From NCBI RefSeq assembly GCF_035285525.1, contig NZ_JAYKGW010000014.1, positions 1 through 20,430 on the forward strand: 20,430 nucleotides of DNA. The letters run 5' to 3'. This DNA is from Okeania sp. Lineage in GTDB: Bacteria; Cyanobacteriota; Cyanobacteriia; Cyanobacteriales; Microcoleaceae. Numbering within the stretch: the first letter of the stretch is position 1; each line of letters begins with the position of its first letter. The translations under genes were made by a program, and so were the position numbers. Positions 743 to 19,667 of this stretch are shown piece by piece. The notes under the pieces are model-generated. The model did no database searches. It saw only the letters and a list, made by a program, of their open reading frames with translations, and was not told where the DNA came from.

Positions 743-3175
743 ATGTTCGAGAAAATGAAATTTGTTCAGAAATGGACAGCGATTGCCCTCAGTGGCATCC
801 TACTGTCCCTTTCCCTGTGGACGTATCCAGCCCAAGCTGTCGAAGCGCCCCAGCGTTACGCCTACTTTGGCGATCTACATACTCACACCACCTATTCCCT
901 TGATGCCTACACGGGCTTCATGCGGAATGACCCCAACGCAGCCTACGAATTTGCGAGTGGTGGCTGCAATGTTGTGCCAGGTGGTCCACAAACCTGTGAC
1001 GAAACTCTTGGTATCCCCCTCCACAAACTAAAAAAGCCCCTAGACTTTGCTGCCGTTACCGATCACGCCGAATTTTTAGGTGAGATGGAAATGGCTATCA
1101 ATCCCGAATACGGCAAAAAGAAATACTACAATCCTCTAGCCATTGCTATTCGGAACAAACCCCAGTCTGAATTACTATCAACCTTGGTTTTTGTTAAGGT
1201 CTTGCAAGCAGCAAACCGTGGTAACAACCCCGAACGTAGTGACTATGGCTCCGGTCCCATTGCCGATGAAGCCAGAGTTAACGCATGGAAAAAAATTCAA
1301 CAGGCTACAGAAGACTACTACAAACCTGGAGAGTTTACGACGCTGCATGCCTTTGAATGGTCATCAGCTCCAGGCGGTGTCAACTTCCACCGGAACGTAA
1401 TTTTCGGCGACACTGTTCCTACGGACGAGAATGGTAACGTTTTGCCTGGAGTTCTCCCCGATGTGCCTGTCAGTGCCTTCGAGACTCAATCCCCTGAAGT
1501 ATTGTTGGAATATCTCAGTCAATACGAAGCTGGTGGTGCTAAAGTTCTAGCGATTCCACACAATGGTAACGCCAGTGCCAACAAAATGTTTATGCCCGAA
1601 CGGTGGGATGACGATACACCCATTGACCCTGAATGGGCAGCAAAGCGTGCCAAGTACGAACCATTAGTCGAAATTATGCAAATTAAGGGGACTTCAGAAA
1701 CCTTACCTGACTATGCCCCCGAAGACGAATTTGCGGATTTTGAATTAATGGAACTCACAGACCGGACTCGCGGACGCTACGGTTATGTGCGCGAAGCTTT
1801 GAAAAACGGTCTGCGCCATGAAGAAAACTTAGGAATCAACCCCTTCAAGTATGGTATTGTTGGTGCAACAGACAACCACAACGGTTCCCCTGGCGATACC
1901 TACGAAGATGACTATATGGGTTCCCACGGTTTCAGCGATGCCACCCCCGAACTGCGACAATTTAGTGAGATACCAGGCTGGGAGTCCTTCCCTTATCTAA
2001 ACCCTGGTGCCCTCACAGGGGTTTGGGCTGAACAAAACGAACGTGAACCGATTTTCAATGCCCTACAGCGTAAGGAGACTTTTGGCACTAGCGGTACGCG
2101 GACTCAGGTGCGCTTTTTCGGAGGTTGGAACTTCTCTGATAATCTGAACGAGCAGCCAGATGCAGTTGACACTGCTTACACTACCGGCGTACCAATGGGT
2201 CAGAATTTGCCAGTGCGGGCAAGTGAAGCACCGAAGTTTATGGTCTGGACAACGAAAGATCCCGATGGGGCTAACCTGGATCGGATTCAGATAGTTAAAG
2301 GTTGGACGAAACACGGAGTGACCTACGAGAAAATTTATGATGTGGTAGGTTCGGATGGTCGCACCTCCGATCCAGAAACCCACAGACTGCCTCCTCTTGA
2401 AAGTACGGTGAATGTGGTCAATGCTACTTACGAGAATACTATTGGCGAGCCAGAACTTTCTACAGTCTGGACTGACCCCGATTTTGACCCCACGGCACGA
2501 GCAGTCTACTATCTGCGGGCACTGGAAATTCCTACCCCCCGCTATTCCACCTATGACGCTGCAGAATTGGGCATCGTCCCTAACCCAGTTTCAGCAACGG
2601 AAATCCAAGAGCGGGCTTGGAGTTCGCCTATCTGGTATACCCCCAGTGAGGAAGACTTGACCGCAGGAGAGGCAAATTCCCTGACTGTTGACAAACTGGA
2701 AGCAGCGGGAATTCAACCCCTGACGACTCAGCAGATTAAAGACCGGATTTCTGGCCATAATTTCCAGATTGCCAACCGCATCACAGAGGAGGAGTTTATC
2801 GGTTTCTTCCAGCCATTGGGCTTGCGTTCGGAAGGTGAGTGGTTTTTAGGGTTGTCAGCTAGCTACGCACCAATGCACACCCACGAACTAGAAGCGGCAG
2901 TGCCGACAAAGTACGAGATTAAGGATAATGAACTTCACTTTAACCTCAAGGATGGTAGTGAGTTCGTCGCCCAACTCTTCCTTCAGGATGGGAAAATTCT
3001 GGCAGCTCGCAATGACGAAATTGGCTATGTTAACTATGAGTTGACAGACCTCGAACCAGAGATAGAGCGGTTGACTCTACCTCCTCAAATTTCTGAAAAG
3101 TTGAGTTCACAAGATTTTTGGGATTTAATCATTCAGCAAGTTGAGAAACATTATTCAATCAAGCAGATCAAGTAA
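743..3175 (+). CDS. Secreted DUF3604-family protein (PHP-like metal-dependent hydrolase fold), 810 aa, with an extra ~170-aa C-terminal region
   Basis: Long ORF behind a strong SD. Signal-peptide-like N-terminus (...LWTYPAQA/VEAP). Motifs GDLHTHTTYSLDA, AAVTDH, FEWSSAPGGVNFHRNVIF, AIPHNGN, VRFFGGW, LDRIQIVKGW and ERAWSSPIWY are what I recall for DUF3604. About 50% identical by eye to the next gene. Confidence 0.88.
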   Translation: MFEKMKFVQKWTAIALSGILLSLSLWTYPAQAVEAPQRYAYFGDLHTHTTYSLDAYTGFMRNDPNAAYEFASGGCNVVPGGPQTCDETLGIPLHKLKKPLDFAAVTDHAEFLGEMEMAINPEYGKKKYYNPLAIAIRNKPQSELLSTLVFVKVLQAANRGNNPERSDYGSGPIADEARVNAWKKIQQATEDYYKPGEFTTLHAFEWSSAPGGVNFHRNVIFGDTVPTDENGNVLPGVLPDVPVSAFETQSPEVLLEYLSQYEAGGAKVLAIPHNGNASANKMFMPERWDDDTPIDPEWAAKRAKYEPLVEIMQIKGTSETLPDYAPEDEFADFELMELTDRTRGRYGYVREALKNGLRHEENLGINPFKYGIVGATDNHNGSPGDTYEDDYMGSHGFSDATPELRQFSEIPGWESFPYLNPGALTGVWAEQNEREPIFNALQRKETFGTSGTRTQVRFFGGWNFSDNLNEQPDAVDTAYTTGVPMGQNLPVRASEAPKFMVWTTKDPDGANLDRIQIVKGWTKHGVTYEKIYDVVGSDGRTSDPETHRLPPLESTVNVVNATYENTIGEPELSTVWTDPDFDPTARAVYYLRALEIPTPRYSTYDAAELGIVPNPVSATEIQERAWSSPIWYTPSEEDLTAGEANSLTVDKLEAAGIQPLTTQQIKDRISGHNFQIANRITEEEFIGFFQPLGLRSEGEWFLGLSASYAPMHTHELEAAVPTKYEIKDNELHFNLKDGSEFVAQLFLQDGKILAARNDEIGYVNYELTDLEPEIERLTLPPQISEKLSSQDFWDLIIQQVEKHYSIKQIK

Positions 3176-3355
3176 ATCTACTCTGGCATCTCACAATAGT
3201 TGGGTAATTTCCCAACCCATTGATTGAGTGTAAGTCCAGCGACTGACAGATAGCTTCCTAACTAGAAGCGATCGCCAAAAAACCTGAACCAATAGAAACC
3301 TTGTCCAAAGTTCAAAAATCCAACAAAAAACAATTCCTACAGGAGTTATCAAAAA
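3172..3355 (+). promoter_or_regulatory. Leader copy L2 (long-hairpin variant), between the two DUF3604 genes
   Basis: GTAAATCTA 3172-3180 contains the TAA stop of gene 1. P1 is CTGG 3183-3186 / CCAG 3236-3239. P2 is CTCA 3190-3193 / TGAG 3225-3228. Also CAAT 3194-3197 / ATTG 3219-3222 and an apical stem GTTGGG 3199-3204 / CCCAAC 3211-3216. GCTTCCTAAC at 3253-3262, AGGAG SD at 3341-3345. Confidence 0.5.
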
Positions 3356-5536
3356 ATGAATCGAACGATTTCGCAAGTCCAACGGCTTTTGGTCGGACTT
3401 TGCACTCTCCTCTTCGTGGGTAGGATATTCCTCGGTGCTAATAGCGCCCTGGCAACTCCCTCGATCCCCGGAGAATACGACTTTATATTTCGGAAAAGCA
3501 ACTCAACCACTGTGCCTGAAGTAGATTGTCGCTTTTACCCAAATACCAAGTGCTACTCTCCCAATGTGCAGCATCCTCAACAGGTATTATGGGGCGATAC
3601 TCACCTGCATACCATTTATTCTTTTGATGCAGGAGCCGATGGAGCTCGTTTGACACCAGCCGATTCCTATGAATTTGCTAAAGGCAATGAAGTCACGATT
3701 GATGCAGGACAACCTGTCAAGCTTTCTCGTCCCTTAGATTTTTTAGTCGTTACCGATCACTCGGACGGATTAGGGGCTTTTGGGGATTTTTTGTATAATC
3801 TTCCCACAGATTGTGGTTCCGATCAAGAGCAGGTCAATACCTGGCATGAGATGATTCTTGCAGGTGGAGATGAGGCATCTCAAGCTTCATCAGAAATTAT
3901 TGCCAGTTTTTCCCAAGGAAACTTCCCCTTATGTATGTTTCCCTCTGCCGAAGAATTCCAAACTTTCTGGCAGGAAATTATTGATGCAGCAGAAGCTTAT
4001 AACGATCCGGGTAATTTTACCGCTGTGATTGGTTATGAGTGGACTTCGCTGTTGGGTGGCAACAACTTACACCGTAACATCATCTACCGCGATAATGGGG
4101 ATAAAGCCAAGCAACTGGTCCCCTACACCACAGACCAAAGCACTAATCCAGAATACCTTTGGGATTGGATGCAAAACTATGAGGATAAAACAGGTGGTAA
4201 TGTGCTAGCGATTCCTCACAATGGTAATCTCAGCAACGGTCTGATGTTTGCAGAAATCGATCATAATGGTAATCCTTTAACTGAAGACTATGCTAAACGG
4301 CGACAGCTTTGGGAACCCATCTATGAAGTTACCCAAATTAAAGGTGCCAGTGAGACCCATCCAGAAATATCTCCTGATGATGATTTTGCTGATTTTGAGG
4401 TTGCAGGTTGGGATATTGGCAACCTGGATCTGAGTTTCCCCAAACCCCCTGAAACCGATCCCGAAGCCCGCAAGAAGATGTTTGAGCATGAATATGCTCG
4501 TCCAGCTCTGAAAAATGGACTAAAATTTGAAGAAAGCCTGGGTGCTAACCCGTTCAAATTTGGTCTAGCAGGTGCATCAGATTCTCATATTGCTCTGTCG
4601 GCAGTCGAAGAGAATAGCTACATGGGTAAGTTTGTAAGTGAAGCTCCCAGTGCTGAACGAGCAGTAGAGGATCATGGCGGTCGTTTGGGATGGCAGTATG
4701 GAGCCTCTGGCTTTATAGGAGTTTGGGCTACGGAAAATACCCGTAAGGCTCTATTCGATGCGATGGAACGGCGAGAAGTTTATGGCACAACCGGACCGCG
4801 TATGAAGGTGCGTTTCTTTGGCGGTTGGGATTTTGCCAACTCCGATCTAGAGGATATGGCTGAAGTGGGCTACAACAAAGGAGTTCCTATGGGTAGCGAT
4901 TTACCTCCAGCACCTCCGGTTCCTGCAATATATCCACCCCCGATTCCGTCTCCAACCTTTATGGTGGCAGCGATGAAAGATTCTGATTCCTATGGAGCAA
5001 ATCTAGACCGGATTCAAATCATTAAAGGCTGGCTGGATGCTGAGGGCGAAACCCATGAGAAAATCTACGATGTAGCTTGGTCTGGCGGACGTACCCCTGA
5101 TACCGAAGGCAAAGTCCCCGCCATTGAAAACACTGTGGACACAGAAACGGCAACTTGGGACACCACCAGCGGTGCTGACTACCTGGAAACAGTCTGGACT
5201 GACGATGAGTTCGATCTCACCCAGCGAGCGTTTTATTACGCGCGGGTGTTGCAAGTTCCGACTCCTCGTTGGACGGACTACGACAAGGCGTTCTATGGCG
5301 ATGAGTGGGATGCTGCTTGTGCTGCTGCGGAAACAGACCCGGAATTAGACATCGTTTGTGATGAGATTCCCCTAACCTTACAGGAACGGGCGTATACCTC
5401 TCCGATTTGGTATTCTCCAGCTACAGTAGCAATGGAATCCACATCCGAGTCTACCCAACCTGTTGAAAATGTGGCTGAAGAAGATTTTTGGGATACAATC
5501 ATTCAGCAGGTTGAGAAACGTTATTCAACTAAGTAG
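3356..5536 (+). CDS. Secreted DUF3604-family protein, paralog 2 (726 aa)
   Basis: Signal-peptide-like N-terminus (...GANSALA/TPS). Same motif series as gene 1: GDTHLHTIYSFDA, VVTDH, YEWTSLLGGNNLHRNIIY, AIPHNGN, VRFFGGW, LDRIQIIKGW, ERAYTSPIWY. Confidence 0.88.
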   Translation: MNRTISQVQRLLVGLCTLLFVGRIFLGANSALATPSIPGEYDFIFRKSNSTTVPEVDCRFYPNTKCYSPNVQHPQQVLWGDTHLHTIYSFDAGADGARLTPADSYEFAKGNEVTIDAGQPVKLSRPLDFLVVTDHSDGLGAFGDFLYNLPTDCGSDQEQVNTWHEMILAGGDEASQASSEIIASFSQGNFPLCMFPSAEEFQTFWQEIIDAAEAYNDPGNFTAVIGYEWTSLLGGNNLHRNIIYRDNGDKAKQLVPYTTDQSTNPEYLWDWMQNYEDKTGGNVLAIPHNGNLSNGLMFAEIDHNGNPLTEDYAKRRQLWEPIYEVTQIKGASETHPEISPDDDFADFEVAGWDIGNLDLSFPKPPETDPEARKKMFEHEYARPALKNGLKFEESLGANPFKFGLAGASDSHIALSAVEENSYMGKFVSEAPSAERAVEDHGGRLGWQYGASGFIGVWATENTRKALFDAMERREVYGTTGPRMKVRFFGGWDFANSDLEDMAEVGYNKGVPMGSDLPPAPPVPAIYPPPIPSPTFMVAAMKDSDSYGANLDRIQIIKGWLDAEGETHEKIYDVAWSGGRTPDTEGKVPAIENTVDTETATWDTTSGADYLETVWTDDEFDLTQRAFYYARVLQVPTPRWTDYDKAFYGDEWDAACAAAETDPELDIVCDEIPLTLQERAYTSPIWYSPATVAMESTSESTQPVENVAEEDFWDTIIQQVEKRYSTK

Positions 5537-5561
5537 ATGAAGTAAATCTAACCTAGTATTT

Positions 5562-5658
5562 GTAGGTTGGGTTGAGGACACGTTTGCGGAGTATTTCCAA
5601 CGGAAAGACCCAACATTACCAAGATTTTTGTTGGGTTTCCTGCGTCAACCTAACCTAC
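5562..5658. mobile_element. MITE-A copy 2 (uninterrupted, ~97 nt)
   Basis: GTAGGTTGGGTTGAGG at the left end and CAACCTAACCTAC at the right end are inverted repeats. Collinear with 378-437 plus 553-589. Confidence 0.6.
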
Positions 5659-5673
5659 ATTTTTGATGATCAA

Positions 5674-5768
5674 GTAAATCTATCCTGGCATCTCACAATG
5701 GCTTGGGAAACTACCAAACCATTCAATGAGTCTAAGTTCTGGAGGAAGCGATCGCTTCCTAACTAGAG
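5674..5768 (+). promoter_or_regulatory. Leader copy L3 (orphan: no intact gene downstream; proposed P1 3' half mutated)
   Basis: GTAAATCTA 5674-5682, CTGG 5685-5688, CTCA 5692-5695 / TGAG 5727-5730, AATGG 5697-5701 / CCATT 5719-5723. The 3' partner of P1 reads TTCTGG instead of TCCAG. 16-nt palindrome GGAAGCGATCGCTTCC, then GCTTCCTAAC at 5754-5763. Confidence 0.4.
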
Positions 5769-6646: not shown

Positions 6647-6673
6647 ATTTATATTCCTGTGAATACTTACCTT

Positions 6674-6884
6674 ATAATTAACCGCGAACAACTCAAAAAC
6701 GAACTTGATTCTGTCGATGATGCAACAATTAATATCCTACATAATGTCAGAATAGCACTCAAAAAAAAATAGTGAATCTTCTAATTTTCTAACTAACTGG
6801 TTAGTCAATAATCTACTCAAAAATAGTGTTATTTATGAAAAAGATATTATTTCTCCTATTGATGAAAATTGGTCTAACTACTGA
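6674..6884 (+). pseudogene. Decayed paralog of the 11611-11823 antitoxin gene
   Basis: Collinear with 11611-11823 at high nucleotide identity. The ATG is replaced by ATA at 6674-6676. An A9 run (A8 in the intact copy) shifts the frame into TAG TGA. The upstream context 6655-6673 is also shared with 11591-11610. Confidence 0.7.
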
Positions 6885-7066: not shown

Positions 7067-7122
7067 AACTAAATTATCAAATACTTTTTTCCTGGCTCAC
7101 CAGTTCAAATGCAATCAATTTG

Positions 7123-7294
7123 GTAAATCAATCTATTGTCTGCCTTTTGCCTTCCCAACTGCTTTTCCTGGCACCTCGCAATAACGAGTGGTAAGTCCAG
7201 TAAGTGAGCGATCGCTTCCGACACCAGCGGAACTGAAAGCTTCCTAACAAAAGGTACTCGTACCAAAAAAAAATCAACTTTACAAGAATCAAAC
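7123..7294 (+). promoter_or_regulatory. Leader copy L4, directly upstream of the PLP-decarboxylase gene
   Basis: GTAAATC 7123-7129 plus a ~38-nt extension shared only with L5. P1 is CTGG 7168-7171 / CCAG 7197-7200. P2 is CTCG 7175-7178 / CGAG 7185-7188 with loop CAATAA. HIP1 palindrome present. GCTTCCTAAC at 7239-7248. Confidence 0.45.
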
Positions 7295-11552: not shown

Positions 11553-11610
11553 GTTAATAAAGCTTTTATCGCCCACTAAAAATAATAACTCACCCCTGAA
11601 TGCTTACCTT

Positions 11611-11823
11611 ATGATTAACCGCGAACAACTCAAACACGAACTTGATTCTGTCGATGATGCAACTATTAATATCCTACATGATGTTATCATAGCACTTAAA
11701 AAAAATGGTGAATCTTCTAATTTTATAACTAACTGGTTAGTGAATAATCCACTCAAAAACAGTGTTATTTATGAAAAGGATATTATTTCTCCTATTGATG
11801 AAAATTGGGATGTTGATTTATGA
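11611..11823 (+). CDS. DUF2281-like type II antitoxin (70 aa)
   Basis: The stop overlaps the PIN gene start (ATGA at 11820-11823). MINREQLKHELDSVDDATINILHDVIIALKK ... IYEKDIISPIDENWDV resembles the helical N-terminus plus D-x-x-x-P-hydrophobic-x-E/D-x-W C-terminus of DUF2281 antitoxins as I recall them. Confidence 0.6.
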   Translation: MINREQLKHELDSVDDATINILHDVIIALKKNGESSNFITNWLVNNPLKNSVIYEKDIISPIDENWDVDL

Positions 11824-12206
11824 TTATTCTTGATACCCATGCTTGGATTTGGTGGTTGACAGAATCTCCTAAACTTTCCAATAGAGCAATCAAAACTATT
11901 GAGAATAATACTATCATCGGGATTGCTGCTATTAGCTGTTGGGAATTATCTATGCTAGTGGCAAAAAATAGAATTGAATGATCAATGGATATTCAAATTT
12001 GGATGAGTTTAGCTTTCCAACATCCTCAAGCTACACTTTTACCCCTTACTCCAGAAATTGCAGTTTTATCAACTCGATTACCTGGAGAATTTCATGGAGA
12101 TCCTGCGGATAGATTAATTGTTGCTAGTAGTTTGGTTCATAAAGTTCCACTGATTTCCAAAGATGAAAAAATCAAGAAATGGGGATATTTACCTGTCATT
12201 TGGTAA
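11820..12206 (+). pseudogene. PIN-domain (VapC-like) toxin gene with an in-frame TGA at 11979-11981
   Basis: The single frame reads MIILDTHAWIWWLTESPKLSNRAIKTIENNTIIGIAAISCWELSMLVAKNRIE*SMDIQIWM...FHGDPADRLIVASSLVHKVPLISKDEKIKKW. The PIN acidic residues are in the expected context (LDTH, WE, DPADR). The ORF track only reports the part after the stop (11985-12206). Confidence 0.7.
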
Positions 12207-12281
12207 ATCAATCTATTTTCTGCCTTTTGCCTACCAGACTACTTTTCCTGACGCCTCCCAATAACGAGTGGTAAGTCTTGC
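12203..12281 (+). promoter_or_regulatory. Leader copy L5 (orphan, degenerate)
   Basis: By eye roughly 85-90% identical to L4 (7122-7200). P1 reads CTGA.../...TCTTG and P2 reads CTCC/CGAG, so both proposed stems are broken. The PIN stop TAA (12204-12206) lies inside GTAAATC. Confidence 0.4.
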
Positions 12282-12322
12282 AAGAGAGCGATCGCCTCTA
12301 GTTAAGAAGCGATCGCTCTCTT
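12282..12322. repeat. 14-bp perfect inverted repeat built on two HIP1 sites
   Basis: AAGAGAGCGATCGC 12282-12295 and GCGATCGCTCTCTT 12309-12322, with a 13-nt loop. Confidence 0.6.
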
Positions 12323-12446: not shown

Positions 12447-14984
12447 CTATGGTGCTAATTTACCTTTACCAAGTCTATTTTTTTCATACCATTCTGCTAT
12501 ACTAGGAACCCAATCTTGAACATGAGGCCACATTAACTCACATAATTTTTGAATTTCTAATTGAGCATTCTTTTTAAAACGTAAATCCAAAAAATGTAGC
12601 AAACTACGGGAATTAAAACTAACAATAAAATGCTGACGATAATCAAAAGGAATTATTCCTCTAGCGTGTTCTTCAGACATTCCTAAATCCATAGCAATTT
12701 TATATTTATTAGCTGCCTCTAAACACCACTGTAAATCTTGTTCTCGTTGTTGAGGAGAATAATAATATTTTTTACCTTGACGGTCAAAATATTCTCCCAC
12801 CGGACGTAAGTAAAAAGCAGTTTCTATATCCGTTTTTCCCTCTGCCACTGCAATAACTTTTCCGGAACAGTAACGATAACTTTGTACATCAAAAGAATTA
12901 TGAACAACTAAACCATTAGCGATAAAATTATGTTCTGGATGTTCTACTTCAATATCATAAGTAATTTCTTTCCCAAATTTTTCAATAGATTCTATTTCTA
13001 CAAAATCAGGGAACAGGGAACAGGGAACAGGGAACAGAGAATTAATAGGATTTATAGTTGATTTTGGATAGGAATTTTCTGCTATCCACTTTTCATCCAA
13101 GATTTCTTTTTCCCAAAAATTAATGTCTCGTTGAGCAATTTTATTACCAGTTAATCCCACTTCACATAATTGAGTTTTATTCTTCTTTATCAGGAATGGG
13201 GAACAGGGAACAGGGAACAGATAATCAATATAATTTATAGTTGATTTTGAGTGGGAATTTACTGGCATCCACTTTTCATCTAACATTTCTTGTTCCATAA
13301 AACTAATTTCCTGTGGAGGAATTTTATTACCAGTTAATTGCACTTCACATAATTGAGTATTATTATCAAATTCCTTCAACCTTTTCCACCCTTGATTAGT
13401 CCAAAACTGGTGTTCTAATGTAGCTCTTATTTCTTTACCAGAAACAGTTTTTATTGTGTAAGTTTCTTGTTCGCCATTAATATAAATATTAGTAATTTTA
13501 CTAGAAACAAGTTGGTTAGTTTTAGTATCTAAAGTCAAAATAGTACGTCTAGATATACTCTCTTGCATATATTTTGCATCATTAGAAGTTTGTTGATGTT
13601 TTCTCCCGTAATGCCATAAATTAGCTAATTTTTCAATAGTTTCTTCATAATATTTCTCTCCTCTATATAAAGACGAATGCCCAAATCTAACCTTTGTATT
13701 ACCCGACAAACAACAACCTATTCTATGAGTTCTTGCTTGTTGCATCACACTATGAGGAAAAAATCCACAATTAAAAGTAATTTGCGGGTGTTCAAGACAA
13801 TTTCCACAGACAATAACTTTTCCATTTCTTCTAACTAATAAAGCACCAGTAGAAACAGAAGCGCAATAAACTTTACCTTTGTAATTAACAAAACCTTCTT
13901 TTCTTCCTGCATCTTTATTTTCTTGACAATATTCAACAGGATATGTAGAAATTTCAGAGCTATGTAATCTCCAGCAAGGTTTCTGATTTTTATCCGCTTC
14001 ACACTCATTTTTATTATTTAAAGTTAGGTTTGCCCTAAAACCATTAATATGTGCAGTTGCTTGAATTATTTCTAAAGCATTTTTATTAGTTGAATCATAG
14101 CACCAACTTTTTTCTTTTATATTTGTACCATCACTGTTTTGTAAGCCATCCCAAAAACTTGCTATTAAATTTGCTGGTAATTCTAATAACCAAATTGGCA
14201 CAGTCTTATCTTCAGAATTAGAAAAATTTCGATGAATCCATGAAGCTAAGGATTTGTGTTCAATTACAAACCTATTTTCCTGAGTTTTTTCGATGTCTAA
14301 ATTCAATGAAAGTAAATAATCTATTTTGCCAGAATTTTGTATTGTAAATCTAACAACATCAGAATTTTTATTTATACTTCTCAACCCATCTCTATAGAAA
14401 AAACCTGCTATTCTAAAAGCTGTTTCTAAGTCGATATTTTCTGGTAGATCCTTAGGTAACTTTCTGGAACTATTTTTTAAATAGCAATTCAATAAATAAC
14501 GTACTGGTGTATTATAAACATCTTCAGCTTTTTTGCTAAACCATTCTGTCCAATTATTTTCTGTACTTGTTCTTCGGGAAACTATCATCCTATGGTCTTT
14601 TGTGACTAGCAAATCAATAAAATTGCTCTGAACATAATATAATTCATCATCTATATCATACTCATAAAGTTTACTTGGCTTTTCAAACCAAGCCTCTTTT
14701 GTCTCAGGATTTACAGCTAGTAACTCCATAGCATAAGTTATTTTATTCCAACTAATCCAACCTTGATTTGTTAACACTTCAGTATCAGCAGAATAGCATC
14801 CAAAATGGCCGCGATCGCCTGCTAAAAGTCGCTTAACAATAATTTCCCCACATTTTGCTTCCGAAGGCCAAGTATTTTGTTCATCAAAGACAAATCCTTC
14901 ACTATAATCTTGATGTAAAGCTGCATAAATTAGTTGTTGAGGATTAGGTGTTTTGTTAATAATTTCTACTCGAAATTTATCCAT
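12447..14984 (-). CDS. thyX: FAD-dependent thymidylate synthase ThyX precursor carrying two inteins (845 aa; exteins total ~240 aa)
   Basis: Exteins are aa 1-62 (...LLAGDRGHFG), aa 396-424 (CLEHPQITFNCGFFPHSVMQQARTHRIG[C]) and aa 697-845 (SFDVQSYRY...). Joined, they recreate the ThyX signature R-H-R-x(2-3)-S-x(4)-S-x-R-Y. They are separated by two Hint-type insertions. Confidence 0.88.
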   Translation of the reverse strand: MDKFRVEIINKTPNPQQLIYAALHQDYSEGFVFDEQNTWPSEAKCGEIIVKRLLAGDRGHFGCYSADTEVLTNQGWISWNKITYAMELLAVNPETKEAWFEKPSKLYEYDIDDELYYVQSNFIDLLVTKDHRMIVSRRTSTENNWTEWFSKKAEDVYNTPVRYLLNCYLKNSSRKLPKDLPENIDLETAFRIAGFFYRDGLRSINKNSDVVRFTIQNSGKIDYLLSLNLDIEKTQENRFVIEHKSLASWIHRNFSNSEDKTVPIWLLELPANLIASFWDGLQNSDGTNIKEKSWCYDSTNKNALEIIQATAHINGFRANLTLNNKNECEADKNQKPCWRLHSSEISTYPVEYCQENKDAGRKEGFVNYKGKVYCASVSTGALLVRRNGKVIVCGNCLEHPQITFNCGFFPHSVMQQARTHRIGCCLSGNTKVRFGHSSLYRGEKYYEETIEKLANLWHYGRKHQQTSNDAKYMQESISRRTILTLDTKTNQLVSSKITNIYINGEQETYTIKTVSGKEIRATLEHQFWTNQGWKRLKEFDNNTQLCEVQLTGNKIPPQEISFMEQEMLDEKWMPVNSHSKSTINYIDYLFPVPCSPFLIKKNKTQLCEVGLTGNKIAQRDINFWEKEILDEKWIAENSYPKSTINPINSLFPVPCSLFPDFVEIESIEKFGKEITYDIEVEHPEHNFIANGLVVHNSFDVQSYRYCSGKVIAVAEGKTDIETAFYLRPVGEYFDRQGKKYYYSPQQREQDLQWCLEAANKYKIAMDLGMSEEHARGIIPFDYRQHFIVSFNSRSLLHFLDLRFKKNAQLEIQKLCELMWPHVQDWVPSIAEWYEKNRLGKGKLAP
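12897..13712 (-). mobile_element. ThyX intein 2 (~272 aa), mini-intein without a recognisable endonuclease
   Basis: Starts (C)CLSGNTKVRF. Block B is ATLEH. Ends ...ITYDIEVEHPEHNFIANGLVVHN, followed by +1 Ser697. The first residue is ambiguous between Cys424 and Cys425. Confidence 0.8.
12999..13364 (-). repeat. In-frame tandem duplication (2 x 183 nt = 2 x 61 aa) inside intein 2, each unit ending in GGGAACA heptamer repeats
   Basis: Unit 1 is 13182-13364 (NNTQLCEVQLTGNKIPPQEISFMEQEMLDEKWMPVNSHSKSTINYIDYLFPVPCSPFLIKK). Unit 2 is 12999-13181 (NKTQLCEVGLTGNKIAQRDINFWEKEILDEKWIAENSYPKSTINPINSLFPVPCSLFPDFV). On the + strand (GGGAACA)x4 lies at 13009-13036 and x3 at 13199-13219. Confidence 0.85.
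13800..14798 (-). mobile_element. ThyX intein 1 (333 aa) with a LAGLIDADG homing-endonuclease domain
   Basis: Starts CYSADTEVLTNQGW (block A). Block B is LLVTKDH. LAGLIDADG-like motifs are RIAGFFYRDG and LIASFWDGLQNSDG. Ends ...VYCASVSTGALLVRRNGKVIVCGN, followed by +1 Cys396. Confidence 0.85.
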
Positions 14985-15010
14985 AAAATTATTCTAAAGT
15001 TTAGCTATTA

Positions 15011-15038
15011 AGTCAAAAGTCAAAAGTCAAAAGTAAGA
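15011..15038. repeat. STRR-type heptamer tract (AGTCAAA)x3 plus one degenerate unit
   Basis: AGTCAAA at 15011-15031 and AGTAAGA at 15032-15038, starting 27 nt upstream of the thyX start codon. Confidence 0.8.
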
Positions 15039-15276: not shown

Positions 15277-15353
15277 GATTAAATGTTAAAACCTATTTAG
15301 TATTGCAATAGGTTAGAACATTTACAAATACTCAAAGTCAGTCAGACATCATT

Positions 15354-15388
15354 TTTGACTTTTGACTTTTAAATCTTGACTTTTGACT
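15354..15388. repeat. STRR-type heptamer tract (TTTGACT)x5, inverse of 15011-15038
   Basis: Five heptamers, the third degenerate (TTTAAAT). It is the reverse complement of the AGTCAAA tract and ends 8 nt before the ATG at 15397. Confidence 0.8.
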
Positions 15389-15396
15389 TAAAAATA

Positions 15397-17696: not shown

Positions 17697-17742
17697 TTCT
17701 TCCTTCTTCCTTCTTCCTTCTTTCTTCTTTCTTCTTTCTTCT
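17697..17742. repeat. Polypyrimidine heptamer tract (TTCTTCC)x3 (TTCTTTC)x3
   Basis: Six consecutive heptamers at 17697-17738 plus a partial TTCT. ORF 17566..17826 runs through it and is treated as spurious. Confidence 0.85.
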
Positions 17743-17845: not shown

Positions 17846-19022
17846 TTAAACAACACAGAGCTTATTTGACCGACGAATCAGCTTAACTTTCTTAAGGGAA
17901 AATTGCCCAATTCGTTTCCAATTGTGGTCGTAAACGCTGATATTTTTGCTTTTAGCATCAGTAAAACCACCAACCCATCCCATGTAGGTTTTTCCTGCTT
18001 TTTCTGCTAAAACTCGATCGCCATAACGAACATTAAAAGGAGTAGTTGTTCCCCCTTTGCGTTTACGAATGCTGCCTTTTTCTGTATTGTCAAAGTGCAA
18101 AGCACGACGAAAATAAGCAGGTCTGGTTATAACTCGGAAAATGCAAGGAGTAATATTAACTGAACCTTTCCATCCCCAAGTATCGTTTTTTTTACCAGGG
18201 GTTACGCGCCCGACGGACAAACTCACTTGCTCCCAAAGCAATCCCATCTACTGCATGAGACTCTGGTACTTGGGCTTTTTTATCTTTGATTTTCTCCAGT
18301 TTTAAATATCGGCGTATTTGGCTGGTTCCGTTATTATTCTTTTGCCAACCATAGACAGTTTTAACTGGGGCAATAGATTTGAGCTTTTCTACGCAATAAT
18401 TCTGTCCAACCATTACTGGAGAAAATCCTTTACCCGAACGCGCTCCTTTTCTACCGCTGGTTAAATCGACATCAGCTTTAACCAATTCATAGACAATTTT
18501 ACTAATAGGAAATACCTGGGAAAGTTCAGCAATGACTCTGATTTCCATCTCCCTAGAAGCTCGAATAGATGGAACTAATTTACCTTTTTGAATGCGATTA
18601 TTGAATCGCTTTTGTCGATGGGCACGTTGGTTAAAGGGTACTTTTCTATTAATTCTTCTACCTCGTCGTGCCCGACGTTGCAATGCTCGGTTTCTGACAT
18701 TTTTAATGACTTTGCCTTGCTTAATAACAGCAGAACCAAGTCGCTCTTTAACGCGGTCGAAAGGCAAAACGAAATGTGCGGCAAAAAGAGTAAACTTTGC
18801 GGATTGGACTGCAATCCCGGTATACTTTTTACCAGGGTCACAGCCAACTGCTATTTTCTGAGTTTCACAACCCGATGGTTCAGCTACCAGCCGAACATAA
18901 TACAAGCCTGTATCATTCCAATGGGAAGTTGCTTTTCCTTTCTTGAGCCAACGACGTGCCCGCGATGCTTTTGTCGGCATTGCAGGGGAACCGTCTGGAT
19001 TTTGAACTGGTACTCGAAACAT
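17846..19022 (-). pseudogene. isrB: IsrB-like (IscB family lacking the HNH domain) OMEGA RNA-guided nuclease gene, split by one frameshift
   Basis: N-terminal PLMP-type domain MFRVPVQNPDGSPAMPTKASRARRWLKKGKA. RuvC-I is KIAVGCDPGKKYTGIAV. Arg-rich bridge helix is LQRRARRGRRINRK...RFNNR. RuvC-II is KIVYELVKAD. RuvC-III is SHAVDGIALG. No CxxC/HNH insert is present. The C-terminal target-interaction-like domain (RRALHFD...KGG...FNVRYGDRVL...GWVGGF...) is in the adjacent frame (ORF 17846..18247). Confidence 0.8.
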
Positions 19023-19290
19023 AAGAGATAATCCTTTTCGAGAAAAGTTGTATGTCCCTACGACCACCAAAAACGTTGTGTCCTGGAATAACCCAGTGCC
19101 TTCACCCAAGAAGGCCAACAAATAGTCCGGGCTAGGGAAATACCCAGAGGTGTTATCGTTTTTGGCTCCATGCATGCATGGTCTAGCCAACTCTTAGTTA
19201 GACGTTGGGTTGTCCAAGCTGCGCGTCTTTAGACCGCAGAAGTTGACCTAAGTCAAAACTCTCTTCGCTATTCGTGGTTTATACACTTTT
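19023..19290 (-). ncRNA. Candidate omega-RNA scaffold (plus guide at its 5' end) of the IsrB-like element; boundaries approximate
   Basis: It is in the position expected for IscB/IsrB omega-RNAs, immediately 5' of the ORF on the same strand. Several hairpins read on the - strand: CTGCGGTC-TAAA-GACGCGCAG (~19221-19241), TTGGCT...AGCCAA enclosing the 14-nt palindrome CCATGCATGCATGG (~19163-19190), CCTTC-TTGGGT-GAAGG (~19098-19113), CTTTTC..GAAAAG (~19034-19047). The 56-codon N-terminal extension of ORF 18192..19190 lies here and has no IscB-like sequence. Confidence 0.45.
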
Positions 19291-19583: not shown

Positions 19584-19667
19584 ACAGCGTTCGTCTCATA
19601 AATTATCAGTAATTATCCGTATAATACAGCGTTCGTCTCATAAATTATCAGTAATTATCCGTATAAT
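19584..19667. repeat. Perfect 42-bp tandem duplication
   Basis: ACAGCGTTCGTCTCATAAATTATCAGTAATTATCCGTATAAT occurs at 19584-19625 and again, identical, at 19626-19667. Confidence 0.9.

Follow-up and report, generated by a model that had tools for sequence, protein, structure and literature searches.

Two inteins of different types at conserved sites of the thyX gene of an Okeania cyanobacterium

The thyX locus and its precursor

The DNA considered here is a stretch of 20,430 nucleotides from Okeania sp. (Cyanobacteriota, Microcoleaceae; assembly GCF_035285525.1, contig NZ_JAYKGW010000014.1, positions 1 to 20,430 of the forward strand), which is referred to below as the window. On its minus strand lies thyX, the predicted gene for flavin-dependent thymidylate synthase (ThyX), a single open reading frame (ORF) for a precursor with two inteins, intein 1 at site a and intein 2 at site b (Table 1). 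An earlier note on this DNA, made from the letters alone, had described an ORF of 845 codons with only about 240 codons of ThyX, invaded by two different inteins. Both statements are borne out by alignment with intein-free ThyX: the insertions are exact, they are of different types, and both fall in conserved ThyX motifs.

When the precursor is scanned with Pfam and NCBIfam, aa 695-833 are matched as the C-terminal half of ThyX, aa 425-529 and 675-697 are matched as the N- and C-terminal splicing regions of an intein, and aa 63-395 give no match in this full-length scan. A spliced query of 240 amino acids, made by deleting aa 63-395 and 425-696, matches more than 2,000 ThyX proteins, the best of which are exactly 240 residues long with 100% query coverage; identity reaches at most 88%. 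When the precursor is aligned with eight intein-free 240-residue ThyX proteins of cyanobacteria, two clean block insertions are the only indels, and the extein parts are 67-88% identical to the intein-free cyanobacterial orthologues. The spliced protein covers positions 2-191 of the 191 positions of Pfam Thy1 (PF02511; E 4e-40), whereas the unspliced precursor covers only 81-191 (E 5e-29). With a TIGR02170 score of 127 bits (cut-off 88), the protein minus its insertions is, by its sequence, a member of the ThyX family. The alignment fixes the junctions and, as both insertions are absent from the orthologues, leaves no reading of them as ordinary ThyX domains.

A genome scan located 16 related thyX loci (L001-L016) in Okeania, Dapis, and Trichodesmium assemblies, the nearest being 83-94% identical; a search for contigs that encode exactly the 845-residue product gave no match. 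Among the window and L001-L004, the ratio of nonsynonymous to synonymous substitution rates (dN/dS) of the exteins is 0.08-0.14, which argues for a functional host gene. A scan for promoters and terminators gave matches at chance level.

Both inteins have the canonical ends that had been read from the sequence, namely Cys1, the TxxH of block B, a terminal GN (intein 1) or HN (intein 2), and a Cys or Ser at +1. With ↓ marking a junction or insertion point, intein 1 runs from CYSADTEV to VIVCGN↓C with VTKDH in block B, and intein 2 from CLSGNTKV to LVVHN↓S with TLEH. For intein 2, the end at aa 696 and the splitting of the ThyX signature were given correctly in the earlier note; the start is aa 425, and the signature is split as THRIGC↓SFDVQ and not as THRIG↓SFDVQ. 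The N-terminal junction is THRIGC↓CLSGN, and the TIGR01445 match also begins at Cys425. Cys424 is thus the last residue of the middle extein, a position held by V, L, or I in orthologues.

Table 1. Features of the thyX precursor gene in the window
Feature	Positions	Strand	Remarks
thyX precursor ORF	12447..14984	-	845 codons + stop; no group II intron
N-extein	14799..14984	-	aa 1-62; C-terminal end ...GDRGHFG
Intein 1 (site a)	13800..14798	-	aa 63-395; 333 aa; LAGLIDADG-type large intein
Intein 1, block A	14775..14798	-	CYSADTEV; Cys1 invariant in 19/19 family members
Intein 1, block B	14586..14612	-	LLVTKDHRM; Thr66 (B:7), His69 (B:10, invariant), Met71 (B:12)
Intein 1, first LAGLIDADG motif	14382..14417	-	FRIAGFFYRDGL; acidic Asp137 retained
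Intein 1, second LAGLIDADG motif	14124..14168	-	LIASFWDGLQNSDGT; Asp223 retained
Intein 1, blocks F and G plus +1 residue	13797..13871	-	VYCASVSTGALLVRRNGKVIVCGN↓C
Middle extein	13713..13799	-	aa 396-424; CLEHPQITFNCGFFPHSVMQQARTHRIGC
Intein 2 (site b)	12897..13712	-	aa 425-696; 272 aa; Trichodesmium-type ThyX intein, endonuclease lost
Intein 2, N-terminal splicing domain	13308..13712	-	blocks A and B (CLSGNTKV, TLEH); pLDDT mostly >90
Intein 2, tandem duplication	13010..13364	-	183-bp unit, 1.9 copies, 85% identical; at former endonuclease position; predicted disordered
Intein 2, heptamer run at end of repeat copy 1	13199..13220	-	3.1 copies
Intein 2, heptamer run TTCCCTG (coding strand)	13007..13041	-	5 copies; read as LFPVPCSLFP
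Intein 2, C-terminal splicing domain	12897..13007	-	blocks F and G: ITYDIEVEHPEHNFIANGLVVHN
C-extein	12450..12896	-	aa 697-845; begins SFDVQSYRY

Insertion sites in the enzyme

Site a falls in the motif (R/G)H-x-G↓(C/S/T)-x-EH and site b within the ThyX signature RHR...S-x-RY. On alignment with Helicobacter pylori ThyX (PDB 3AH5), the two sites lie within the conserved stretches RHSS↓TLEH and RHRIA↓SLSVKSSRY, respectively. The signature rejoined by splicing reads THRIGCSFDVQSYRY. Compared with RHR(X)7S-x-R-Y, it has Thr for the first Arg and one residue extra, and this variant is common to all cyanobacterial orthologues aligned, whose site-b signature is one residue longer than that of H. pylori. 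The title of the 2004 report of Liu and Yang (J Bacteriol 186:6316) speaks of “distinctive ThyX motifs,” with which the variant is consistent. The site-a and site-b motifs of ThyX line the pocket for flavin adenine dinucleotide (FAD) and deoxyuridine monophosphate (dUMP), and it is therefore reasonable to predict that ThyX activity needs both splicing events.

Intein 1, a LAGLIDADG intein missed by domain libraries

Scanned alone against Pfam and NCBIfam at E up to 10, intein 1 gives only noise (DUF7154, IrmA), and a single-sequence search of the PDB gives one marginal match (E 0.029). Its type is recognized only by a family profile and by structure prediction. A database search returned 120 relatives. 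Approximately 100 of them are ThyX proteins of roughly 570-583 residues with the intein at the same site; they come from many cyanobacteria (one entry is from Synechococcus elongatus) and are 30-89% identical over the whole insert. The hosts of the distant relatives are DNA methyltransferases, PhoH, terminase, IMP dehydrogenase, RNA polymerase beta subunit (RpoB), and GTP cyclohydrolase I; these proteins bear precomputed matches to PF14528 (LAGLIDADG_3) and PF14890 (intein splicing). In 23 inserts excised from the family, the start is C-[YF]-x-x-x-T-E-V and the end is G-N followed by C, S, or T, and the flanks of the site-a inteins in ThyX are always GH[YF]G↓C[LI]EH.

A profile of 19 family members matches the solved inteins AceL NrdHF (E 1e-11) and PI-PkoII (E 6.5e-11, covering its endonuclease region), as well as three VMA inteins, PI-PfuI, and PI-SceI. 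The AlphaFold2 model built on the same alignment has a mean predicted local distance difference test (pLDDT) value of 90.8 and a predicted template modelling (pTM) score of 0.90. In Foldseek, its E values are 1e-14 to 1e-10 against TliVMA, PhoVMA, PI-SceI, and PI-PfuI, and the range extends to 5e-10 when PI-PkoII is included, with a probability of 1.00 for the VMA, PI-SceI, and PI-PfuI inteins, and its central lobe matches the fold of I-DmoI and of the endonuclease domain of PI-SceI. Intein 1 is thus predicted to have a HINT fold and, within it, two LAGLIDADG helices with their acidic residues in an alpha-beta-beta-alpha-beta-beta-alpha fold. The LAGLIDADG type assigned in the earlier note, with limits at aa 63-395 and the split GDRGHFG↓CLEHPQ, agrees with the alignment, the family profile, and the AlphaFold2 and Foldseek results, the type itself following from the profile homology to solved inteins and the confident model matching VMA, PI-SceI, PI-PfuI, and I-DmoI.

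Across the 19 members, C1, H69, G332, and N333 are invariant, and the class 1 residue set is complete in intein 1 (Cys1, Thr66-x-x-His69, Asn333, Cys+1). Its C-terminal part has Cys312 at F:4 (18/19 members), Leu321 at F:13, the invariant Gly332 at G:6, the invariant Asn333, and then Cys+1. The acidic position of the first LAGLIDADG motif (IAGFFYRD137G) is D in 14 and E in 3 of the 19 members, and that of the second (DGLQNSD223G) is D in 17. Intein 1 is hence a large intein of LAGLIDADG type from a family that ends in Gly-Asn and has neither of the two assisting histidines.

Selection on intein 1 and its mobility

Intein 1 is found in six alleles (window, L001-L004, L011), every copy being exactly 333 residues long. 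In the five alleles of the window and L001-L004, the intein is free of indels, with a dN/dS of 0.31 for its whole length and 0.28 for the endonuclease, and dS is 0.13 in the intein versus 0.27-0.42 in the flanking exteins. The intein is present in some alleles and absent from others with 96-99% identical C-exteins, and within the 48 nt that flank site a, occupied and empty alleles differ by as few as 1 base. An empty allele reads ...GGACATTATGGA↓TGTATTGAACACCC...; the empty sequence of L007 is GCAGGCGATCGCGGACATTATGGA↓TGTATTGAACACCCTCAAATTACT, of which synonymous variants occur in L005, L008, and L016. The +1 Cys is retained in the empty alleles of this clade (CIEHP), whereas more distant cyanobacteria have Pro (PLEHP), which fits a history in which the intein was gained and lost repeatedly.

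By its lower dS, intein 1 would be younger than its host gene, an expected sign of homing. Together with the purifying selection on the endonuclease and the patchy distribution, this younger age suggests, in a small sample, that homing continues. A HIP1 palindrome (GCGATCGC, 14801-14808, minus strand) lies 9 nt upstream of the site-a insertion point and is kept in most alleles.

Intein 2, an intein with a decayed endonuclease

Intein 2 is matched by PF14890 (E 1e-15), TIGR01445 (E 7e-10), and TIGR01443 (E 1e-7). Its class 1 blocks are complete: CLSGNT with Cys1, TLEH as TxxH, and HNFIANGLVVHN↓S with His-Asn and the +1 Ser. They are nearly identical to those of orthologues in Trichodesmium, Okeania, and Dapis, and by sequence intein 2 is orthologous to the intein at the same site of Trichodesmium thyX.

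Most orthologues of intein 2 (L005-L010, L012-L014, L016) have about 120 additional residues. In L005, this region is matched above Pfam thresholds by NUMOD4 and HNH_3, the values for the orthologous intein of Okeania SIO1I7 being E 4e-7 (PF07463) and E 2e-7 (PF13392). The extra region is a homing endonuclease of a type unlike that of intein 1. In the Pfam scan, intein 2 of the window has neither NUMOD4 nor HNH_3, and the alignment shows the 183-bp duplication in their place. The repeated unit combines the native linker (TQLCEV.LTGNK...DEKW) with what is left of a degenerate NUMOD4 and with the TTCCCTG run. Between repeat copies 1 and 2, there are 24 nonsynonymous codon differences and 1 synonymous one, so the repeat peptide is evidently unconstrained. 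The AlphaFold2 model has a HINT core with pLDDT above 90, and intein residues 142-232 are below 50; Foldseek pairs this core with the DnaB mini-inteins of Npu and Ssp (TMt up to 0.88). The repeat region is predicted to be a disordered loop.

The duplication is common to the window, L001, and L003, and a clean deletion of the endonuclease has arisen independently in L015. At site b, the occupied flanks read AGA ATA GGT TGT↓TCT (RIGC↓S) versus CGC GTC GGA GTA↓ACT (RVGV↓T) in empty alleles, a distinctive sequence which indicates that intein 2 and its flanks are inherited together. It has been reported that the Trichodesmium erythraeum ThyX (Ter ThyX) intein minus its central region splices to approximately 100% in Escherichia coli (PMC3620165); by this precedent, the center of intein 2 should be dispensable for splicing.

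L001-L003 and L008 have an extra in-frame insert of about 49 residues in intein 2 (IEEGVRSQ...GVLNPQKKDK, after ...CEVQLTG), which is not found in the window and resembles a small mobile repeat that is translated as part of the intein loop. The TTCCCTG heptamer array also occurs in intergenic DNA of L003, and heptanucleotide arrays of the same kind lie between genes of the window (AAGTCAA at 15010-15034, TTTTGAC at 15353-15395, TTCTTCC at 17697-17742).

Distribution of the double arrangement and of group II introns

The genome scan found both inteins at the same sites in Okeania KiyG1, SIO3I5, and SIO3B5 (proteins of 898, 837, and 905 residues). The full precursor was further searched against 1.84 billion cluster representatives (clusters at 50% identity), and among the best 150 matches, which were those examined, there are at least 12 divergent two-intein ThyX clusters with 28-87% identity to the query. 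The Okeania double-intein proteins came up in this exhaustive representative search, but not in protein searches with the intein sequences. In three cyanobacterial two-intein proteins (P0313, P0319, P0321), the second intein sits not at site b but five residues farther downstream (SFDVQ↓SFRY), immediately before the signature Ser, which makes this a third ThyX intein site. Several two-intein clusters are of non-cyanobacterial ThyX, with inteins at HRHG↓SPFEH and RHRVGF↓SYNEESGRY. This recurrence across ThyX lineages makes both motifs recurrent intein hotspots, and their joint occupancy is not rare in sequence data. Among alleles with C-exteins at least about 80% identical, all four occupancy states are found (none, a only, b only, both). 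Whether the double arrangement had been catalogued was a question of the earlier note. It is present in public assemblies, in three Okeania and at least 12 clusters; the literature searched on ThyX inteins, their insertion sites, and Okeania inteins yielded no account of a ThyX intein at site a or of a double one.

The thyX genes of the relatives also have interruptions of 1.8-2.5 kb at five or more positions: after codon 9 (L009, L015), after codon 25 or 26 (L005, L008, L016, L011), after codon 69 (L013), and, in L011, inside the opening codons of intein 1. L013 has a further intron, which ends where the exon beginning with codon 26 starts; no exon preceding this intron was located in L013. 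In the four loci covered by the Rfam intron scan (L005, L009, L011, and L013; not L008, L015, or L016), group II intron matches that include domain 5 reach their end at the restart of the exon. By its title, the 2004 report of Liu and Yang describes T. erythraeum thyX as having an intein and a group II intron. Splicing of the T. erythraeum thymidylate synthase intron has been reported (PMC4143802), and the group II introns of the relatives agree with the published picture of T. erythraeum thyX. For the thyX of the window, the reading of the insertions as group II introns or other RNA elements was rejected, as Rfam finds none there.

Base composition

The earlier note had considered the DNA of intein 1 more AT-rich than that of the exteins on the basis of sampled lines. 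The sampled guanine plus cytosine (GC) contents were nearly right (25.0% and 38.3%, against 25% and 37% as noted), but the contrast over full segments is weak, with 34.2% in exteins and 30.5% in inteins (chi-square p = 0.078). At third codon positions, the GC fraction (GC3) of the inteins (0.18-0.21) equals or slightly exceeds that of the exteins (0.14-0.17). The difference thus resides in codon positions 1 and 2 and reflects amino acid composition rather than foreign DNA; AT-richness as evidence of foreign origin was rejected because GC3 is not lower in the inteins. At third codon positions, the exteins match the inteins in AT-richness, and thyX as a whole has approximately 31.5% GC (a value derived from those of the exteins and inteins) versus a window mean of 40.1%.

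Other features of the window

An ORF of 332 residues at 18192-19190 (minus strand) is matched by Pfam RRXRR (E 9e-42); its N-terminus is PLMP-like, and it contains the RuvC-like motif GCDPGKKYTG. It is followed, in another frame and overlapping, by an ORF of 133 residues. A HEARO (IscB/IsrB omega-RNA) match at 19047-19247 is sub-threshold (37 bits, E 5.6e-5). By sequence, the region 17846-19247 looks like an IscB/IsrB-type element, possibly frameshifted. In L011, a full-score HEARO RNA lies shortly downstream of thyX.

Direct repeats with 87-95% identity (6660-6872 and 7118-7218 versus 11597-11808 and 12198-12298) are spaced by about 5 kb and flank decarboxylase and amylase genes. The downstream copy holds small ORFs that adjoin thyX, and among the small ORFs beside thyX there is a truncated PIN domain (11985-12206). 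Tandem DUF3604 paralogues are located at 743-3175 and 3356-5536 (plus strand; E 1e-190 and 2e-221), with their 3′ ends and downstream DNA also repeated (3081-3235 versus 5451-5737). A perfect tandem repeat of 42 bp in two copies is present at 19584-19667.

Interpretation and alternative explanations

The anatomy of the insertions, their homology and fold, the pattern of selection, and the distribution among relatives are best explained by a thyX precursor with two independent inteins of class 1 type, of which intein 1 is probably mobile and intein 2 immobile (probability approximately 0.85). In this mechanism, Cys1 of each intein would form a thioester, the N-extein would move to the residue at +1, a Cys after intein 1 and a Ser after intein 2, and the terminal Asn would cyclize, freeing each intein after translation. 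The expected product is the 240-residue ThyX with its FAD and dUMP motifs restored. Intein 1, with an apparently intact and selectively maintained LAGLIDADG endonuclease, is probably still homing into empty thyX alleles. In intein 2, the NUMOD4/HNH endonuclease would have decayed, followed by a neutral tandem duplication and heptamers that form a floppy loop. No longer mobile, intein 2 presumably persists since imprecise removal would destroy an essential active-site motif.

Several points weigh against this explanation. Intein 1 has no penultimate His (Gly at G:6 in 19/19) and no block F His (Leu at F:13), and the Pfam and NCBIfam intein models do not match it. Its endonuclease activity is deduced solely from conserved Asp residues and purifying selection, and the dN/dS and dS estimates come from five alleles only. 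In intein 2, an unusual Cys stands at -1 beside Cys1, and the predicted-disordered loop of about 90 residues could affect splicing kinetics. The actual splicing of both inteins in this precursor is likewise a deduction. The absence of the histidines at G:6 and F:13 is a family-wide trait, which slows Asn cyclization in some inteins; these residues assist and can be dispensed with. For the penultimate His, its absence from some inteins has been documented (Chen, Benner & Perler 2000, as cited in PMC4031507).

The splicing class of intein 1 requires consideration. Class 3 inteins are defined by the lack of an N-terminal nucleophile and by the WCT triplet (Trp at B:12, Cys at F:4, Thr at G:5) (PMC7891396, PMC4031507). 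Of these features, intein 1 has only the F:4 Cys. Class 3 membership was rejected on the invariant Cys1, the Met at B:12, and the lack of Thr at G:5, a position held in the family by Cys, Ser, Leu, or Ala; on its residues, intein 1 is best filed as class 1. It has nevertheless to be considered that it is not purely class 1 and that Cys312 serves as a branch-point nucleophile, alone or alongside Cys1. The best solved relative of the N-terminal half of the family is indeed a class 3 intein, AceL NrdHF (E 1e-11), which likewise has Met at B:12, Cys at F:4 (18/19 in the family), and no His at either F:13 or G:6 (PMC7891396), and whose spacing of 22 residues compares with 21 from Cys312 to Asn333. 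Against this stand the Cys1 conserved in 19/19 members, which class 3 inteins do not have (PMC4031507), the absence of Thr at G:5, and the fact that Cys ranks second among the residues at F:4 across inteins in general (PMC4031507). Such a role of Cys312 seems unlikely. It is similarly improbable, as a broader proposal, that the site-a family stands mechanistically between class 1 and class 3 and is able to use either thiol, which with the Cys-Cys junction of intein 2 could make ThyX maturation, and through it the supply of deoxythymidine monophosphate (dTMP), redox-sensitive in these cyanobacteria. The idea of an intermediate derives from the invariant Cys1, the near-invariant F:4 Cys, the invariant Gly-Asn terminus, the lack of His at F:13 and G:6, and the class 3 nature of the nearest solved relative.

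Another explanation is that the inteins have been co-opted as redox switches, oxidation blocking splicing and throttling the synthesis of dTMP under stress. The cysteines proposed are Cys1, Cys+1, Cys312, and Cys331 for intein 1, together with the Cys424-Cys425 pair at the junction of intein 2. Cysteines are indeed numerous at or near both junctions, the endonuclease-free intein 2 persists across the whole clade, and Mycobacterium smegmatis DnaB offers a precedent with two inteins of which the endonuclease-free one is redox-sensitive (PMC6195587). However, one or both inteins are missing in close relatives, so that neither is required, and the persistence is equally explained by the difficulty of a precise deletion from an active-site motif. 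A redox function is as poorly favored as the role of Cys312.

A little less probable still is a thyX in decay, in which one or both inteins are splicing-dead and dTMP is obtained via ThyA or salvage. This would accord with the two assisting histidines missing from intein 1 and with the unconstrained junk repeats in intein 2, and the view is confined to the window, the remaining genome lying outside it. A pseudogene is, however, at odds with an open frame of 845 codons, intact nucleophiles and block B residues throughout, strong purifying selection on the exteins (dN/dS 0.08-0.14), the same architecture in three other Okeania genomes, and a Gly-Asn end that is invariant in a large family across many essential genes. 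Finally, the notion that the insertions represent no more than lineage-specific ThyX domains of an ordinary kind, or else a chimera of the assembly, which has in its favor only the failure of Pfam on intein 1, can be dismissed: it is refuted by the alignment with intein-free orthologues up to 88% identical, which exactly lack either insertion, and by the Foldseek comparisons of both models, with a HINT fold in each, and the same architecture recurs in independent assemblies.

The double-intein thyX is therefore real, yet it adds one more case to a phenomenon already known and recurrent in many public genomes. It combines a Trichodesmium-type ThyX intein, in which repeats have replaced the endonuclease, with a member of a widespread, unannotated family of LAGLIDADG ThyX inteins. 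The thyX of the Trichodesmium, Okeania, and Dapis lineage is confirmed as a hotspot of selfish elements, with two intein sites and, in the relatives, at least five group II intron positions. With four occupancy states, one intein seemingly mobile, and the endonuclease of the other caught decaying with repeats in its place, it offers a compact natural system for the intein homing cycle. Because the site-a family is missed by the Pfam and NCBIfam intein models, such proteins are annotated as plain ThyX; the family is a candidate addition to intein catalogues, and its compact, Gly-Asn-terminated LAGLIDADG inteins may be of use in engineering. The current understanding of inteins is unchanged by these results.

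Comparison with known systems

The closest known counterpart of intein 2 is the Ter ThyX intein, which occupies the same site within RHR...S-x-RY. The blocks CLSGNTKV, TLEHQFWT, and EVEHPEHNFIANGLVVHN↓S of Trichodesmium thyX genes are near-identical to those of intein 2, and the equivalence rests on these database sequences. Compared with Ter ThyX, the copy in the window has lost NUMOD4/HNH and gained the 183-bp duplication and the heptamer runs. The Trichodesmium thyX genes examined have group II introns and no site-a intein, unlike the window. Large tandem repeats are reported to occur in the Ter DnaB-1 intein as well (Yang, Meng, and Liu, 2004, Mol Microbiol), which would be a similar case of in-frame tandem repeats tolerated in the dispensable center of a cyanobacterial intein. 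The host gene and the repeat unit differ, and here the repeat replaces a decayed HNH endonuclease.

PI-SceI, PI-PfuI, PI-PkoII, and the Tli and Pho VMA inteins resemble intein 1 in having HINT split by a two-motif LAGLIDADG endonuclease. Identity to them is only 10-13%, and intein 1 differs in its thyX host, in its Gly-Asn rather than His-Asn end, in the Cys at F:4, and in the lack of His at F:13. The best solved-structure sequence match for its blocks A and B is the class 3 split intein AceL NrdHF (PDB 6ZGQ). AceL has Ala1 and Thr at G:5, is split, and lacks an endonuclease. Intein 1, by contrast, is a contiguous intein with a LAGLIDADG domain; its Cys1 is invariant, and its G:5 residue is not Thr.

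Multiple inteins in one protein are known from T. erythraeum ribonucleotide reductase, which has four (PMC2874743), and from M. smegmatis DnaB, which has two, one with an endonuclease and one without (PMC6195587). As in the ThyX of the window, unrelated inteins occupy separate conserved sites of a protein of nucleotide metabolism or replication, and M. smegmatis DnaB also shares the pairing of an intein with an endonuclease and one without. The host protein is different here, and the sequence of the double-intein ThyX gives no evidence of differential or conditional splicing.

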